From NCBI GenBank assembly GCA_963706955.1, contig CAVPOC010000003.1:256001-320000 (forward strand): DNA of 64,000 bases. Direction: 5' to 3'. The translations under genes and the position numbers were made by a program. Position 1 is the first letter of the stretch. Each line of letters begins with the position of its first letter. The stretch is from an uncultured Verrucomicrobiae bacterium. Lineage in GTDB: Bacteria; Verrucomicrobiota; Verrucomicrobiia; Chthoniobacterales; Terrimicrobiaceae. This document shows positions 10,934 to 19,336 of the stretch, piece by piece. The notes beneath the pieces are model-generated. The model made no database searches and had not been told where the DNA came from. It saw only the letters and a list, made by a program, of their open reading frames with translations.

Positions 10934-12622
10934 ATGCAACGGCAATGGATCTTCCCAAGCCTGGATGAGGATGAGGCCGTTGGTCGGTTGAGTAACGAGC
11001 TAAGCGTGCCGCTCTTCCTGGCACGCGTCCTGATGCGCAATGGACTTGGGGATTTCAACGCCGCCACAACTTTTCTTGAGCCGCGTCTTCGCCAACTCCA
11101 GGATCCTTTCCTGATTCCCGAGATGGAGGAAGCGGTCGCTCGCATCCGTCATGCCATCGACTGCCGCGAAGGAATTGTTCTCTATGGGGACTATGACGTC
11201 GATGGAGTTGCCTCGCTGGCGCTCCTGCAACGCATTCTCACGGCGATGGGCGCGCGGGTCAGCTGCTTTCTGCCTCTTCGTGCCGAGGAGGGTTATGGAC
11301 TCAGCGCCTCAGGAGTCGAACGCTGTTTCCAGCAATACTCTCCGGAGCTTCTCGTCGCCGTGGACTGCGGGACCAACTCGGCGCGCGAAGTGGCCGTGAT
11401 TCGTCAGCGCGGAGCAGACGTGATCGTTCTCGATCATCACGAAGTCTCCAGCGAAAGGCCTGATTGCGTGGCGCTGATCAACCCTAAAACCGATGGAAGG
11501 TTTCATTATCTTTGCAGCGCAGGAGTAGCCTTTAAAGTCGCCCACGCGTTGCTCAAGCGATGGCCGAACCCCGGCATCGATCTTAAGGACTATCTGGACA
11601 TCGTCGCGCTGGCCACCCTCGCCGACCTGGTTCCCTTAGTCGGCGAAAATCGGATCCTGGTGCACCGAGGTCTCCAGCAGATGGCACGCACTCGGTGGCC
11701 AGGCCTGGCTGCATTGATGACAATTTCCAATGTGCGTGCGCCGCTTCGGGGAAGCGACATCGGCTTCCGCCTCGGACCGCGCATCAATGCCTCGGGGCGT
11801 CTGGGCACCGCGCTAGAATCGCTCCGGCTCCTGCTATGCGACGACATTCGCGAAGCAACCCAGGTCGCGGAAAGCCTGGATCGCCAGAATCGCGCCCGCC
11901 AAAGCGTTGAAAGAGACCTGATCCTGGAAGTCGAGCAATGGGTCGAAGAACACTACGATGCTACCTGCCACGCAAGCATTGTTGCCGGCCGTCGTGAGTG
12001 GCACCATGGAGTGCTCGGGATCGTCGCCGCGCGCGTCATGCGCAGACATCATCGGCCAACACTATTGGTGGGATTCGACGAAAGCGGACTTGGCAAAGGC
12101 AGCGGCCGGAGCATCGAAGGCGTTTCGCTGGTGGACGCGCTGCGGCAATGTGCCGGTCATCTCGAAAAATTTGGCGGACATGAGATGGCTGCGGGCGTGA
12201 CCGTCCACCAGGATCGATTCGAAGAGTTTCGCCGGGCGTTCGAGGTTTCCACGCGCGCGCGGGTCAACGACGATATCCTCACGCCCAAGCTGCGACTCGA
12301 TGCCGAAATGCCAATGGAAGACATTTCATTCTCCCTCCTCCAGATGCAGGAATTGCTCGAGCCTTACGGAATGGGCAATTCCCAGCCCGTCTTCGCGGCG
12401 CGCAGGGTGACTCCGACGAGCGTCCCCCGAATTCTGAAGGAACGGCATTTGCGGTTCGACTTTCGCGCGGGAGGCCGCATCATCCAAGCCATCTACTTCC
12501 GAGGCGCAGAAGAAGCGCTGCCTGGCCCACCATGGGATGTTGCCTTTACCCTCGAACGCAACGAATTCAACGGGCGTATCGATGCCCAAATACAAATCGT
12601 GGGCATTCGCGCCGCCGCCTGA
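10934..12622 (+). CDS. recJ: Single-stranded DNA exonuclease RecJ
   Basis: YGDYDVDG, VDCG, LDHH, GPRINA and FGGHEMAAG. Confidence 0.97.
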   Translation: MQRQWIFPSLDEDEAVGRLSNELSVPLFLARVLMRNGLGDFNAATTFLEPRLRQLQDPFLIPEMEEAVARIRHAIDCREGIVLYGDYDVDGVASLALLQRILTAMGARVSCFLPLRAEEGYGLSASGVERCFQQYSPELLVAVDCGTNSAREVAVIRQRGADVIVLDHHEVSSERPDCVALINPKTDGRFHYLCSAGVAFKVAHALLKRWPNPGIDLKDYLDIVALATLADLVPLVGENRILVHRGLQQMARTRWPGLAALMTISNVRAPLRGSDIGFRLGPRINASGRLGTALESLRLLLCDDIREATQVAESLDRQNRARQSVERDLILEVEQWVEEHYDATCHASIVAGRREWHHGVLGIVAARVMRRHHRPTLLVGFDESGLGKGSGRSIEGVSLVDALRQCAGHLEKFGGHEMAAGVTVHQDRFEEFRRAFEVSTRARVNDDILTPKLRLDAEMPMEDISFSLLQMQELLEPYGMGNSQPVFAARRVTPTSVPRILKERHLRFDFRAGGRIIQAIYFRGAEEALPGPPWDVAFTLERNEFNGRIDAQIQIVGIRAAA

Positions 12623-12740
12623 TTCGTGGCGATCTCCGATGAGCGATCGGCTGGCTTTTCCACCAACCCGAGATCCAACTGTCGCAGTCTTCGCCGCAGC
12701 AGGACCAGTAGCGTGCTAGGGCTTTCGTGTTTGTGCCACA

Positions 12741-15498
12741 ATGAGTGACATTCACTCAATGAGCTTGGCCTTACTCCGGCCGGAAACGCCACTAGGCGAA
12801 CTCGATTGGGTCCCTCGCGCAAAGCTGGCCCCACTGAGGCGACTGGGGCTGGAGACACTCGGCGATCTGCTCAAACACTATCCCAGGCGATATGAAGATC
12901 GCAGACGGTTTGACCGGTTCCCCGATGATGAAATGATCCAGCCCGTCTGCCTTTTCGGTTTGGTCACCCGAACGTCGCTCAAGCGAATCGGCGGATGGCG
13001 GAGAATGTTTGAGATCACGTTGGAAAACGAGTCCGCCGGCGTGCTGAGCGAACCGGTGACCTGTCGCTGGTTCAACATGCCGTACATGCAGAAGTTGATC
13101 GTCACGGGCCAGCACCTGGTGATCTTCGGAAGACCGAAGAAGAAAGGTCAAAAGATTTTCATTGATCACCCGGAATTCGAAGGCGTGGAAGAAGACGAGG
13201 AGACTTCCATCCACATGAATAGGATCGCTCCCGTGCACCCTGCCGGAGACGGGGTGTCCCCACGATTGCTCAGAGCATTGGTCTTTCAAGCGCTCGCCAA
13301 CACCGATCTTGCCACAGTGCCTTCGCTGCTCCCGACATCGCGCGTCGCGGCGCTCCGCGACATTCATTTTCCGCTCACGTTCGAACATCTGGAGGATGCC
13401 AGGCAGGAGTTGGTGCGTGAGGAATTTTTTTCCATGCAGTTGCTGATCCATGCTCGCCGAGCCGACTGGCAGAGGCTGCCCGGAGTCGCCAAGAACGGCA
13501 AGGGCGAGCTTCTCGAGAACCTCTTACAAGAGCTCCCGTTCCCCCTAACCAGTTCGCAATTGGAAGTCATCGGCGAAATTCGTCGTGACCTTGCGGCGCC
13601 GAAGCGGATGAATCGCCTGCTTCAGGGCGATGTCGGATCCGGAAAAACATTGGTGGCCCTGGCAGCGATGCTGCTGGCGGTGGAGGCCGGCTGGCAGGCT
13701 GCCCTCATGGCTCCAACGCAGATTCTCGCGGAACAGCATTATTTGAACTTCAAGAAATTTCTCGAGCCGCTCGGCATTTCGATCGCCCTCCGCACGGCCG
13801 ATCGCAACGAAGATACTGCCCCGCTGCCCCTCTTCGCGCGTGCCGCGGATCGAGGAGCATACGCGTCCACGGGTGCGGTTTCCGGCGTCCCGCCGGAAAA
13901 CCCTGCTCGGCGGGACGCCGACCAGCACACGCGGGACGCGTATGCTCCCCAGGAATCGCGTTGTTCGAAGCGCAATTTGCCGCACTTCGAACGACCGTGG
14001 GCGAAGGTACGTCGTTACCTTTACCACCCGAGAACGAACGGCTCTCACGCCTGAGGAGCGCGATATCGTTCTCAACGCCGTGCTACATGAGCGTATACGC
14101 TTCACGCTTTACGCCACCTGCGTGATGCCTGATCACGTCCATCTGCTTCTCGAGCCGGCGATCAAAGAGGAGGACACCGCTGGAGCTGCAATCTTCTTCT
14201 CCCTCACCGAAATACTTCACTCCCTGAAGTCGTTTACGGCCCATGAGATCAACAGAGTTAGAGGCAAGAGAGGACCCGTTTGGGAAAAGGAATCATTTGA
14301 TCGGCTGATCCGCTCCGAGGAAGACCTGCAGGAGAAGTTTCATTACATAACTCGCAATCCATGGGACGCGGGCGTGGTAGGCGCAAACGAGGAGTATCCG
14401 TGGGTTTGGTTTCCAGGTTGCGCAAAGGATCGGGGAGCGCACCCGTCCCCGGGTGCAGTTTCCGGCGTCCCGCCGGAAAACCCTGCTCGGCGGGACGCCG
14501 ACCAGCACACGCGGGACGCGTATGCTCCCCAGATCATTGTCGGCACGCATGCGCTTCTTTATGAAGCGAGCGGATTCAACGATCTCGGCCTTATCGTGAT
14601 CGATGAGCAACATAAGTTCGGCGTGCTGCAGCGAACGGGTTTGATCGCCCGGGGCGATTCCCCTGATGTCCTCGTCATGACCGCGACGCCGATCCCGCGC
14701 ACGCTCACGCAAACCATTTACGGCGACCTGGATGTTTCTCTCCTCCTGGAAAAGCCGGCCAATCGCGGAACGATCGCCACGGTAGTGCGTGAGACAGTGA
14801 AACTGCCCGAGGTGATTGAATTTGTAAAAAAGCAGATCGCCAGAGGACGCCAAGTATACATCGTTTACCCATTGGTTGAGGACTCCGAGAAGCTCGCGGC
14901 GAAGTCTGCGACTGCGGAGTTTGAAAAGTGGGGGCCTCTCCTGGCGCCGTACTCTGTCGGGCTTCTTCATGGCCGGATGCCCCCGGGCGACAAGGAAGAG
15001 GTGGTCGCCAAGTTTCGCACGGGGCGACTGGCCGCGCTGATCGCTACCACGGTGGTCGAGGTCGGAGTTGACGTTCCCAATGCCAATGTGATGGTCGTGG
15101 AGAACGCGGAGCGTTTCGGATTGGCACAACTCCATCAGCTTCGCGGCCGTATTGGTCGCGCCGAGCACAAGTCGTTTTGTATTCTACTCCACGACGCCAA
15201 AGCCGACCAACTGGCCTTGGAGAAGCTTGCCGTCCTCGAGAGGACTTCCGACGGGTTCGTGATCGCTGAAGAAGACCTTCGTCTGCGTGGCCCTGGCGAT
15301 TTGCTCGGAACCGCTCAGACCGGCTTGCCTCCTCTGAAGCTCGGAGATCTTTTTCGCGACACGCAGCTGATGAAGGAGGCCGCGGCCCTGGCCGCTAAGA
15401 TTTTCGCGAATGATCCCCAACTGCAAAAGACCGAGCATCGCGCTTTGCGTGATTTCCTGGCGCGATCAACGGCGAAAATCGCTGCCTCAGCTGGTTGA
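12741..15498 (+). CDS. recG: ATP-dependent DNA helicase RecG with an internal REP-RAYT-REP insertion; +1 frameshift near 13998-14007
   Basis: ORF 12741-14054 carries the wedge domain, QGDVGSGKT and APTQILAEQH. ORF 13840-15498 carries IVGTHAL, IDEQHKFG, MTATPIPRT and QLHQLRGRIGR. Confidence 0.92.
13847..13952. repeat. 106-bp nested palindromic REP-like element, copy 1 (coding, inside recG)
   Basis: Outer inverted repeat GGAGCATACGCGTCC/GGACGCGTATGCTCC and inner CGGCGTCCCGCCG/CGGCGGGACGCCG; direct repeat of 14427-14532. Confidence 0.95.
13953..14426 (+). mobile_element. REP-associated tyrosine transposase (RAYT, IS200/Y1 HUH family) domain inserted in recG
   Basis: KRNLPHF...YVVTFTT, HUH motif CVMPDHVHLL, HSLKSFTA, WEKESFDRLIR and the catalytic-Tyr helix HYITRNP. 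Confidence 0.9.
14427..14532. repeat. 106-bp nested palindromic REP-like element, copy 2 (coding, inside recG)
   Basis: Six mismatches to copy 1, all in the first 31 nt; the last 75 nt are identical. Confidence 0.95.
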
Positions 15499-15551
15499 GC
15501 GCTCGAAATCGCACTTGATTTCAGAATTAACCGCTCGTTAATTGCGCCAAA

Positions 15552-16922
15552 ATGGCGCTCGATAAGACTCTTCTAATCGTAGATGACGAGAAGAATACCC
15601 GCGATGGGCTTCGAAATGCCCTGCAGGACCATTACGAAGTCTACGCGGCTGCGGATATTGCCGGCGCGTTTGCGGCTTTGGAAACGGAGCCGGCGGACGT
15701 GCTGATCACGGATTTACGACTCGGCGGCGAAGACGGTATGGAGTTGATGGAAAAGGCGAAGAAGCTGCCGAAGCCTCCCATCTGCATCATGATGACCGCC
15801 TACGGCAGCGTGGATACAGCGGTGGAGGCGATGAAGCGCGGCGCTTACGACTTCGTGACCAAGCCGGTGAATATCGATCGGCTCGAGTTGTTGATTCAGC
15901 GCGCCCTGCGGGAGCGGGATACCCGGCGCGAAAACGTGGAACTTCGCCAGCAGGTCAGCCGACGCGCGGGACTGGAAAGCATGATCGGCCATTCTCCGGC
16001 TATGGTCGAGGTCTTCGAAACAATCAAGCAAGTTGCTCCGTCGAAGGCTACCGTGCTGATTCAGGGCGAAACCGGAACCGGCAAGGAGCTTGCCGCGCAC
16101 GCTATTCATGCCCTCAGCACCCGAGCAGAGAAAAAATTCATCGCCGTGCACTGTAAAGCATTTTCACCACAACTTCTTGAAAGCGAGTTATTTGGTCATG
16201 AGAAGGGCGCCTTCACAGGGGCATTTGAGCGACGCATCGGTCGTTTTGAACAGGCGGCGGGCGGAACGCTCTTTCTCGATGAGATCGGCGAAATCGATGA
16301 GAACACCCAGGTCAAAATCCTTCGCGTCCTCGGTGAGCGCACCTTCGAACGGGTCGGCGGCAACCAGACACTGAATACCGATGTCCGCCTGATCGTAGCA
16401 ACCAACAAAGACCTCGCCACACTGGTAGGGGAAGGAAGGTTCAGGGATGATCTCTATTTCCGACTAAACGTCGTGCCCTTGACGATGCCACCCCTGCGTG
16501 CACGTAAAGAAGATCTGCCCCTCCTGGTGCAGGCGTTCCTCCGAGAGTCGGCCAAGGAAAACGCCAAACCGATCCGTGAAATCGCCCCCGAGGCGATGGC
16601 CTGCATTCTCGAGTATAACTGGCCAGGAAACGTCCGCGAGCTGCGGGCCGCGATCGAACATGCTGTCGTCATGTGCAGCACGCCGAAGATCGGCGTCCGT
16701 GATTTACCCGCCAGTGTCCGCCGCCCGCTGCAAATCCCGGAAGGTCCCCCAGAAGAGTCCCACGGATTAAATTTGCACCAATCGGAGCGAAACCTTATTT
16801 TCCGAGCCCTTGAAGAAAGCGGCGGCAATCGCACCGAGGCGGCCCGGATTCTTGGAATCAGTCGTCGAACGCTGCATCGTCGTTTGAAGGAACTGAACAT
16901 CACAAAGGACACGACCATTTGA
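15552..16922 (+). CDS. Sigma54-dependent response regulator (NtrC/AtoC family)
   Basis: Receiver domain (IVDDE, ITD), GETGTGKE, GAFTGA and a Fis-type HTH. Confidence 0.95.
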   Translation: MALDKTLLIVDDEKNTRDGLRNALQDHYEVYAAADIAGAFAALETEPADVLITDLRLGGEDGMELMEKAKKLPKPPICIMMTAYGSVDTAVEAMKRGAYDFVTKPVNIDRLELLIQRALRERDTRRENVELRQQVSRRAGLESMIGHSPAMVEVFETIKQVAPSKATVLIQGETGTGKELAAHAIHALSTRAEKKFIAVHCKAFSPQLLESELFGHEKGAFTGAFERRIGRFEQAAGGTLFLDEIGEIDENTQVKILRVLGERTFERVGGNQTLNTDVRLIVATNKDLATLVGEGRFRDDLYFRLNVVPLTMPPLRARKEDLPLLVQAFLRESAKENAKPIREIAPEAMACILEYNWPGNVRELRAAIEHAVVMCSTPKIGVRDLPASVRRPLQIPEGPPEESHGLNLHQSERNLIFRALEESGGNRTEAARILGISRRTLHRRLKELNITKDTTI

Positions 16923-17338: not shown

Positions 17339-19229
17339 GCCGTTTCTGCCAACCATTCACTCCCCTGCGGACGTGAAGGCCCTCGAGGAAAAGGATCTAC
17401 CTTTCCTGGCCGAAGAGGTGCGCGCTGAGTTGATCCGCGTGCTCTCGCAAACTGGTGGCCACTTGGGGCCCAACCTCGGCGTTGTAGAACTCACGATCGC
17501 CCTGCACCGGGTTTTCAATACCCCAAGAGACAAGTTCGTCTTTGACGTAAGCCATCAAGGATACGTTCATAAGCTCTTCACCGGCCGGCGTGAGCGCTTT
17601 TCCTCGATTCGACAGTATCAAGGTCTCAACGGCTTTCTCCTGAGGACGGAGAGTGAGCACGATTGCTACGGGGCAGGGCACGCGGGCACGGCGCTATCGG
17701 CGGCGCTAGGAATGGCGGCCGCGCGCGACATGCTTGGAGGCGACGAACATGTTGTCTGTGTGGCCGGGGACGCCGCCTTTACCTGTGGGGTAAGCTTCGA
17801 GGCTCTCAACAATCTCGCAGCCACCACGAGGCGGCTGATCCTCGTGCTAAACGACAACGAGTGGTCAATTGCCAAGAACGTGGGCGCGGTGGCTGAGTAT
17901 CTGAACCGCATCGTCGCCAATCCTGCATTTGCCCACTTGCACGACAAAGCCGGGCAGTTCGTCGAGTGGCTCGCCGGAAAGCAGGCGCGACATTTCGCCC
18001 ATAAGGTGGAGGCTGGCGTCAAGAACCTGCTGGCGCCGAGCGTGATCTTCGAGGACCTCGGCTTGCGCTACTACGGCCCGATTGATGGGCACGATATCCC
18101 GCTCCTTATCCGAACGTTCGAATTCCTTAAGACCCAGAATGAGCCGGTTATCCTCCATATTCTGACGAAAAAGGGCAAAGGCTATGCTCCTGCCTTGGAG
18201 AAGCCCGACAAGTTTCATGGGCTTGGCAAGTTTCACCTTGATACGGGGGAGACCGCGGCTTCGGCAAAGCCGACCTATTCCGAACTTTTGGGGAAGACGC
18301 TTGCCGATTTTGCCGATCACAACAACAAGATCGTGGGCGTAACTGCTGCCATGCCCAGCGGCACAGGACTGGTCCATTTCTCAAAGCGACATCCGAATCG
18401 CTGTTTCGACGTCGGCATCGCCGAAGAACATGCCGCCCTCTTCGCCTGCGGACTCGCCGTTCGCGGCATGAAGCCCTTTTTGGCCATTTACTCGACGTTT
18501 CTACAGCGCGCTTACGACATGATCATCCATGATATCGCGCTGCAAAACCTGAACGTCGCGCTTTGCATGGATCGTGCGGGGCTCTCCGGCGACGATGGTC
18601 CTACTCACCACGGTCTCTTCGACATCGGCTATCTTCGCCCGGTTCCCGGAATCGTCCACATGCAACCAAAGGACGAAGATGAGTTCTGCGACATGCTTTG
18701 GACGATGGCGAATTATCATCCCGGCCCCATCGCCATTCGCTATCCGCGAGGAATGGGCACGGGCGCCGAGCCTAAGGAACGTCCAGTGATCCTGGAGATA
18801 GGAAAGGCCGAGGTGCTCTGCCATGGTTCACGCGTGGCCATTATCGCTCTCGGAACGATGGTCGAGGTCGCGTTGGAAGCGGCCACCAAGCTTGAAGAAC
18901 AAGGCATCTCGACCGCGGTAATCAATGCCCGCTGGATTAAACCGCTCGATGTCACCACGATCGAGTTCTTCGCGCGGGGATGCGAGGTGGTCTGCACGAT
19001 GGAAGACCATGTCCTTCACAACGGATTTGGATGTGCGGTGATGGAACACCTCGCCGAGCTGAGGATTACCACTCCGGTCGTCCGGGTCGGCTGGCCTGAC
19101 CAGTTCATCGAGCATGGGAGTGTGCCGATCCTCCGTAAGAAGCATGGCCTCACTGCTGAGGCCACCGTGGAGAAGATCGTGACGGCACTTCCGGTGCGCA
19201 GAGGCATTCGCGTCAAGTCGGCCGCGTGA
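17328..19229 (+). CDS. dxs: 1-deoxy-D-xylulose-5-phosphate synthase
   Basis: GGHLGPNLGVVEL, GIAEEHA and DRAGLSGDDGPTH. Confidence 0.97.
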   Translation: MNHKPFLPTIHSPADVKALEEKDLPFLAEEVRAELIRVLSQTGGHLGPNLGVVELTIALHRVFNTPRDKFVFDVSHQGYVHKLFTGRRERFSSIRQYQGLNGFLLRTESEHDCYGAGHAGTALSAALGMAAARDMLGGDEHVVCVAGDAAFTCGVSFEALNNLAATTRRLILVLNDNEWSIAKNVGAVAEYLNRIVANPAFAHLHDKAGQFVEWLAGKQARHFAHKVEAGVKNLLAPSVIFEDLGLRYYGPIDGHDIPLLIRTFEFLKTQNEPVILHILTKKGKGYAPALEKPDKFHGLGKFHLDTGETAASAKPTYSELLGKTLADFADHNNKIVGVTAAMPSGTGLVHFSKRHPNRCFDVGIAEEHAALFACGLAVRGMKPFLAIYSTFLQRAYDMIIHDIALQNLNVALCMDRAGLSGDDGPTHHGLFDIGYLRPVPGIVHMQPKDEDEFCDMLWTMANYHPGPIAIRYPRGMGTGAEPKERPVILEIGKAEVLCHGSRVAIIALGTMVEVALEAATKLEEQGISTAVINARWIKPLDVTTIEFFARGCEVVCTMEDHVLHNGFGCAVMEHLAELRITTPVVRVGWPDQFIEHGSVPILRKKHGLTAEATVEKIVTALPVRRGIRVKSAA

Positions 19230-19233
19230 CAAT

Positions 19234-19336
19234 GGGAAGTGCACGCGTCCCCGCGTGCAATTTTGAGCGTCCCGCCGGGAGACCGGGTGCGGCGAGACGT
19301 TGCGGAAACCGCCGGACGGCCCGCGTCGGCGTCTCT
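19234..19336. repeat. Degenerate intergenic copy of the recG-type REP element
   Basis: GGGAAGTGCACGCGTCCCCGCGTGCAATTTTGAGCGTCCCGCCGGGAGACC aligns to GGGGAGCGCACCCGTCCCCGGGTGCAGTTTCCGGCGTCCCGCCGGAAAACC; the right end is approximate. Confidence 0.75.

Follow-up and report, generated by a model that had tools for sequence, protein, structure and literature searches.

How a transposase domain has come to lie inside a housekeeping helicase, and what becomes of it there, is the question raised by recG in the stretch of DNA analyzed here (the window, 64,000 nucleotides from an uncultured Verrucomicrobiae bacterium). The nearest named proteins bear the label Terrimicrobiaceae, and the source is most likely a Verrucomicrobiota member living in soil. 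The N-terminal part of the gene (12741..13846; this and all other features are on the + strand unless marked otherwise) encodes the wedge domain and helicase motifs I and Ia, and the C-terminal part (14533..15498) encodes motif Ib, DEQH, the helicase C domain and RecG domain 3; between them lies a cassette, set in a variable loop with motif Ia (13710-13739) on one side and motif Ib (14533-14556) on the other. In recG as assembled, NCBIfam RecG models cover residues 13-356 in the first frame and residues 217-548 in the second, and together with Pfam (RecG_wedge and DEAD in the N-terminal part) they account for the wedge, two helicase domains and all motifs expected of RecG; a genome search found recG as a single copy in the source genome.

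The cassette consists of two 106-nt direct repeats (13847..13952 and 14427..14532, 94% identical to each other) enclosing a domain of ~153 aa (13953..14426) assigned to the RAYT (TnpA-REP) proteins, with the HUH motif at 14134-14142 and the catalytic Tyr codon at 14344-14346. A preliminary description, made from the sequence alone, had reported a Y1/HUH domain in recG with a series of motifs, all of which we found. It had further held that both repeats are stop-free in the RecG frame and that the RAYT runs on into the C-terminal half of the helicase, and this is confirmed: the domain has neither start nor stop of its own, and the right repeat reads in frame into motif Ib. Each repeat had been called a 106-bp palindrome; the two copies stand, although each is better described as an inverted pair of ~47-nt REP units, that is, a REP dimer (REPIN), with units at 13853-13899 (+) and 13904-13950 (-) on the left and at 14432-14479 (+) and 14484-14530 (-) on the right. 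Both repeats are imperfect hairpins (z -10.5 and -6.9, none of 200 shuffles folding as well).

As assembled, recG (12741-15498) measures 2758 nt, or 3n+1, and its frame shifts near position 14006, inside the N-terminus of the RAYT. Four runs were compared at this position, run X1 having no coverage there, and the base was absent from all four covering contigs (runs X5, X6 and X7, from three studies); moreover, four proteins from other assemblies, at least 99.5% identical to the RecG of the window, are intact, with 912-918 aa. Because the base is missing from every covering contig and the near-identical proteins are intact, the extra base (14006..14006) is an assembly error and the source of the apparent +1 frameshift; the true spacer is therefore 473 nt, one less than the 474 bp given previously, and the domain plus one repeat amounts to 579 nt, or 193 codons. 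The cluster of protein P0009 has 13 members: four reach the full length of 912-918 aa and share at least 99.6% identity, two are the window's own halves, and seven are broken at other places, four of them inside the cassette. The scatter of these breaks suggests long-read indels.

The assignment of the domain was examined by profile searches. NF047646 (REP-associated tyrosine transposase) matched the recG segment with 81.1-81.3 bits (cut-off 80) and Pfam Y1_Tnp (PF01797) matched 14008-14427 with 25.9 bits (cut-off 23), both above threshold as anticipated in the preliminary description; a profile of 28 clade members found E. coli TnpA-REP (4ER8, E 9.2e-5) as the best solved structure, while phmmer with the RAYT domain alone gave no match in the PDB. 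Aligned to 4ER8, the domain in the window displays the HUH, the conserved W, the catalytic Tyr and the Asn four residues on. The residues H, H and Y are kept in 204 of 212 clade domains across all hosts, the W in 212 of 212 and the N in 211 of 212; among distinct RecG-borne domains, 61 of 65 keep both HUH and Tyr, or 62 of 66 when the row of the window is counted. All of these are counts that are biased in that the sequences were collected by similarity to the query. An IS200/IS605 insertion sequence was also considered and rejected: the IS200 model scored 18 bits against a cut-off of 55, the motif reads Y-x-x-x-N instead of Y-x-x-x-Q, and such elements are expected in many near-identical copies, the source genome holding a single clade copy. 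With regard to the REPtron pattern, the flanks are a REP and an inverted REP from a family repeated in the genome, as expected; the RAYT is an internal domain of RecG rather than a stand-alone extragenic gene, and the hairpin foot carries GGAG instead of GTAG in 54 of 65 units, a variant, since a supplementary table of PMC6006769 records GGAG feet for certain REPs. By sequence comparison the cassette is thus classed as a RAYT through its domain and its REP association, not through the tag or a stand-alone position.

A profile of the REP family recovered 65 units at 44 loci in the genome, 19 of these loci being inverted dimers, and gave no match in the reversed genome; exact REP cores numbered 39, against 0 in the control. 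The 54 units with a GGAG start have two hairpins. At just two of the 44 loci does an open frame extend for 100 codons to either side of the repeat; these are the right-hand copy in recG and a further locus that is doubtful, the left recG repeat being absent from this count through merging or masking by the frameshift. A single GGAG REP unit at 19234-19278 of the window sits between convergent genes (a 636-aa ORF whose end is at 19229 and the gene that follows, which is on the minus strand). Among the five RAYT matches of the genome (G000), the recG-borne one alone adjoins the GGAG family; the others lie more than 5 kb from any GGAG unit, and three of them (L046, L047 and L048; G000 C8:934716, C10:57776 and C8:542767) are stand-alone RAYT-like genes with repeats of their own: two have GTAG-type units, and the third has inverted repeats of the GGGGTCAG type. 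Because the other RAYTs are distant and three have different repeats, the RecG-borne domain is the sole candidate partner of the REPs. The GGGGWSAS TIR consensus of Di Nocera et al. does not suit the GGAG REPs but fits repeats beside another RAYT of this genome. Within the genus, REP cores number 39, 31 and 17 in genomes with a clade RAYT and 37, 28, 24, 17, 7, 4, 1 and 0 in genomes without one; no clear dependence of REP abundance on the embedded RAYT was seen in the genus, and since clade-free genomes keep as many as 37, 28 and 24 cores, such a dependence is in doubt. In five clade-free genomes of the genus no other RAYT flanked by the GGAG family was found. A slow decay of REPs after RAYT loss has been described (10.1101/2021.07.10.451892) and would fit these counts, while the 1+1 REP counts in four genomes of another genus probably represent the cassette's own flanks. 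In genome G002, at L200:1518-2016, an inverted pair of GGAG REPs with a spacing of 482 bp, which would accommodate a full cassette, lies right behind a large ORF, with no RAYT between them.

We then compared the recG loop among relatives, in which empty, REP-only and full alleles are all present. Eight of 30 recG loci read carry a RAYT at the same loop, namely the window and seven relatives with an open frame, and they belong to three families, its own included. In the genus (15 of 19 genomes read), four loops hold the full cassette, ten hold one repeat (degenerate in three) and one holds a short scar; four of the ten single-repeat alleles were aligned, and these are in register with the repeats of the window. 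Across the family, recG was matched in 79 genomes, and in 5 of them it contains a RAYT. A tree was built from 76 RecG proteins after deletion of the insert, a set enriched for full alleles by the route of collection; on this tree the RAYT state requires 13 changes, at least nine of them being forced by starred branches, and full, one-dimer, scar and empty alleles are intermixed; P0018 (with RAYT) and L009 (REP only) have almost identical hosts, with end branches of 0.003 and 0.008. The flanks differ in layout, with the tags outside the gene (e.g. L018, L149) or beside the gene (L007, L053), the genus having a full dimer on each side. The preliminary description had proposed that the element inserts in frame in a tolerant loop; the reading frame and the tolerant loop hold, with the qualification that the recG cassette is no recent arrival: it is an old resident, for the most part vertically inherited in the genus and repeatedly lost.

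Within the order, 401 genomes were searched and 107 of them hold the same RAYT clade (E 1e-25). Of its 150 matches, 136 sit in open frames no shorter than 583 aa and 14 in frames of less than 400 aa; the unpublished genomes G404 and G242 contribute two of the 107 genomes, two of the 150 matches and one row of the domain comparison (L088), and the conclusions are independent of both. A search for longer RAYT-bearing proteins gave 1381 matches among 1673 candidates; the 120 matches listed are, as judged by Pfam domains, RecG, AlaRS, MetH and ThrRS, some with two RAYTs. In housekeeping proteins the clade thus resides at a few fixed loops, with one site seen in RecG, three in AlaRS, two in MetH and one in ThrRS, besides a pyruvate formate-lyase (PFL)-like enzyme, so that the in-frame cassettes looked for in other housekeeping genes do exist. 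L156 represents the third AlaRS site, and L178:1452-4700 encodes the PFL-like protein, a glycyl radical enzyme with an in-frame cassette. Two RAYT domains occupy different loops of single MetH or AlaRS proteins in P0001, P0002, L128, L137 and L162. A cultured carrier is available in Fontisphaera persica, through its AlaRS (P0079). Automatic annotation names RAYT-bearing proteins inconsistently, and JGI labels pair both names.

Many MetH proteins (542-565 aa; L121, L136, P0050-P0052, P0071, P0082, P0094 and P0098) end just past the first RAYT; in L121 the rest of metH is a separate downstream frame, so that two genes may have arisen from one metH through the cassette. Seven of the 14 short-frame cases were fetched, and all seven are free ORFs that read through REP-like ends. 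Five of them (L201, L202, L203, L204 and L207) share one position in an operon starting with a pilM-like gene; there the RAYT ORF (L207:2867-3568, for example) abuts both operon neighbours, and its REPs are translated as the ends of the ORF. The remaining two lie among transporter-like genes. In-frame insertion is also seen for a RAYT type that is more distant, has other flanking repeats and bears a long insertion ahead of the HUH, at L034 and L035 (ValRS), L036, L038 and L040 (LeuRS), L039 (CarB), L042 (cation efflux) and L037.

Regarding selection, the comparison of the window with G004 gave pS 0.90 and pN 0.10 for the RAYT and pS 0.72 and pN 0.12 for the C-terminal part of RecG, and the median dN/dS over 12 unsaturated pairs was 0.27 for the RAYT and 0.21 for RecG. 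In the 25 loci parsed, from a set of 28, synonymous sites are near saturation and pN is low; dS is therefore unfit for dating transfers. As judged from these substitution patterns, the RAYT domain, catalytic residues included, is under purifying selection.

Distances among RAYTs correlate with those among their hosts (Mantel rho 0.46, reached in 0 of 2000 permutations). Of 12 supported RAYT splits in a comparison of 48 RecGs with P0011 left out, six are in the host tree, two more are compatible with it and four conflict; the RAYT branch of the window agrees with the host tree, and P0102/P0105 are discordant. Discordance is also seen in the pairs L015/L018 (host pN 0.03, RAYT pN 0.31) and L153/L183 (host pN 0.06, RAYT pN 0.30). 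An AU test rejected the host grouping for L168 (p 0.003) and left it standing for L018 (p 0.25), the two groups having been picked once the comparison of domain identities was known. Outside the genus, cassettes have evidently been swapped at the same recG site.

Identity between RecG-borne RAYTs and RAYTs in any other host gene does not exceed 77%, and the nearest or tied nearest neighbour of 65 of 66 RecG-borne domains is also in RecG; domain identities across hosts revealed no recent jump between host genes. Mobility may thus be long past, since the RAYTs in different host genes are not near-identical. On a tree of 133 domains, a quick tree in which 56 of 130 inner branches are open, the six host sites require 16 changes (minimum 5, shuffled mean 72). 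We read this history as one of old jumps among a few sites and mostly vertical descent, with frequent loss and an occasional swap at the same site.

A structure model of the intact protein P0009 was built from a 66-row alignment (mean pLDDT 78.1, pTM 0.63; a single-sequence model reached pLDDT 34). RecG and the RAYT (residues 411-556) are mostly above pLDDT 70, and the REP-encoded residues 353-410 and 557-587 fall below 50. The best structural match is RecG 1GM5 (Foldseek E 2.2e-37; Z 35.3, rmsd 8.8, 611 aligned), and fold searches with the whole model have helicases alone among the matches listed. The prediction proposed earlier for the intact protein of about 918 aa thus yields a folded RecG and a folded RAYT, modelled as two distinct domains with disordered linkers, encoded by the REPs, between them.

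Three other accounts of the locus have to be weighed. That recG is a pseudogene broken by a disruptive insertion, or the cassette an artefact of misassembly, might be drawn from the frameshift at 14006, from the seven other broken members of the cluster and from the fact that no single compared contig spans the whole stretch; this account is, however, refuted by the covering contigs, all four of which lack the base, and by the four near-identical intact proteins of the cluster, the other breaks being scattered. Dozens of independent assemblies also have the same arrangement. The preliminary description had named a frameshift beside a separate intact recG as the sign of a simple disruptive insertion, and we found instead an assembly error in the only recG of the genome, so that we give this account practically no credence. 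The insert might otherwise be removed or uncoupled, by splicing, an internal start or hairpin processing, to leave a normal RecG and a free RAYT, as the strong hairpins at both junctions and the existence of free-ORF forms in the clade would allow. Against this, Pfam detected no intein or Hint family on the intact P0009, and the junctions are REP-encoded peptides, not intein splice residues; Rfam searched to E 1 over 12500-15700 gave no intron model, its two matches being weak sRNA hits (20.8 bits against thresholds of 196 and 50). Only 6 of 46 RecGs have a Met anywhere from motif Ia to the RAYT core, at positions that they do not share, and the RecG of the window has none there; a promoter scan ahead of the RAYT, a weak test, gave no site. 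In every host the reading frame stays free of stops across the two REPs, which is what translation predicts, and we regard removal as quite improbable.

A more serious contender, if still an unlikely one in our judgement, is a domesticated fusion, in which the RAYT is kept for the benefit of the host, e.g. in the processing of single-stranded hairpins at the forks on which RecG acts, and is now immobile. The strong purifying selection and the mostly vertical descent in the genus are what it would lead one to expect, RAYTs in general have been described as domesticated, single-copy and vertically inherited (10.1101/2021.07.10.451892), and RecG is a DNA motor. The cassette is nevertheless carried by just 5 of the 79 family genomes with a recG match and is repeatedly lost on the recG tree, and the same clade, with the same conserved residues, resides in AlaRS, ThrRS, MetH and the PFL-like enzyme, which have no role on DNA. 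Since it is rare, often lost and present in such hosts, a benefit specific to RecG is unlikely; a general benefit of RAYTs to the host is possible.

The reading that we favor, and hold to be probably correct, is that of a REPtron residing in the reading frame of its host, translated unspliced and persisting by descent, with the site at times re-entered or its cassette exchanged. The RAYT cassette would be transcribed and translated as part of RecG, without being spliced out, and the peptides encoded by the REPs would act as flexible linkers between helicase and RAYT, so that both could fold independently and a monomeric RAYT could work while tethered, as we propose; E. coli TnpA-REP is a monomer (PMC6006769). 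The tethered RAYT would nick and rejoin single-stranded DNA at GGAG-tagged REPs, thereby spreading REP dimers through the genome; TnpA-REP is reported to cleave and recombine REP dimers in vitro and to cut at a distance, and its authors considered that it could capture flanking genes (PMC3333891). Recombination between the direct repeats would remove 193 codons and leave a working recG with one REP dimer. Besides descending vertically, the cassette would now and then re-enter the same site, or be exchanged there, from related genomes; moves into new host genes would be rare and old. Because the cassette is kept, lost and swapped at one spot in relatives, a mobile element seems to have become an extra domain of housekeeping proteins.

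More tentatively, and here we would lean slightly towards doubt, the cassette could represent an undescribed class of element: an active HUH transposase that is nearly always an unspliced internal domain of a housekeeping protein, with an intein-like cycle that needs no splicing machinery and DNA ends that serve as linkers. If this is true, the cycle of the element consists of entry into REP-marked alleles at fixed loops, swap and clean in-frame loss, and the host enzyme itself is the transposase behind the REP family of the genome. The listings and abstract openings of the literature describe no RAYT domain inside housekeeping proteins, although supplements and subscription papers could mention one. 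Quentin et al. 2018 set aside proteins of excessive length as 'gene fusions or annotation errors' (PMC6006769), and embedded RAYTs were missed by earlier surveys because fused proteins were filtered out in this way. A splice-free route into conserved genes would be open to a mobile element whose own ends are compatible with protein, and embedded cassettes would be a source of domain insertion in core enzymes. The finding bears on why RAYTs are kept and on whether REPtrons ever move as a unit; a cleavage and strand-transfer assay on single-stranded REP DNA is available (PMC8266576). Both questions can be put to the test, since one gene occurs naturally in full, REP-only and empty forms and a cultured carrier exists.

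Inteins with homing endonucleases reside in frame at fixed sites of conserved genes, are expressed from the host gene and have a patchy distribution shaped by gain, decay and loss. The recG cassette is likewise an in-frame resident of conserved genes with fixed sites and a patchy distribution; in contrast to inteins, it has no detected Hint domain and occupies a variable surface loop, not a conserved motif, its enzyme is a single-strand HUH transposase and its ends are DNA hairpins. Intragenic REPs and Rickettsia palindromic elements offer a second comparison: in-frame palindromes have been described in DNA-repair genes, helicases and tRNA synthetases, in greatest number in Opitutus terrae, and the REP-only recG alleles are of the same kind, whereas the intragenic REPs, in the sections of that source drawn on here, are non-coding repeats of ~20-30 codons without a transposase (PMC3733652). 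REP insertions are also described within subclass 2.4 tnpA-REP genes (PMC6006769). The REPtron itself (E. coli TnpA-REP 4ER8; class 2, PMC6006769; PMC3333891) is like the recG cassette in its HUH, Trp and Y-x-x-x-N-P, in its flanking REP dimers of ~100 bp, which are found throughout the genome and for the most part away from long frames, and in having, here, one clade copy per genome with vertical descent and loss. Unlike the REPtron, with its GTAG tag and one hairpin, the recG cassette has a GGAG tag and two hairpins, and its RAYT lies inside the frame of another gene, without start or stop, with its REPs read in frame.
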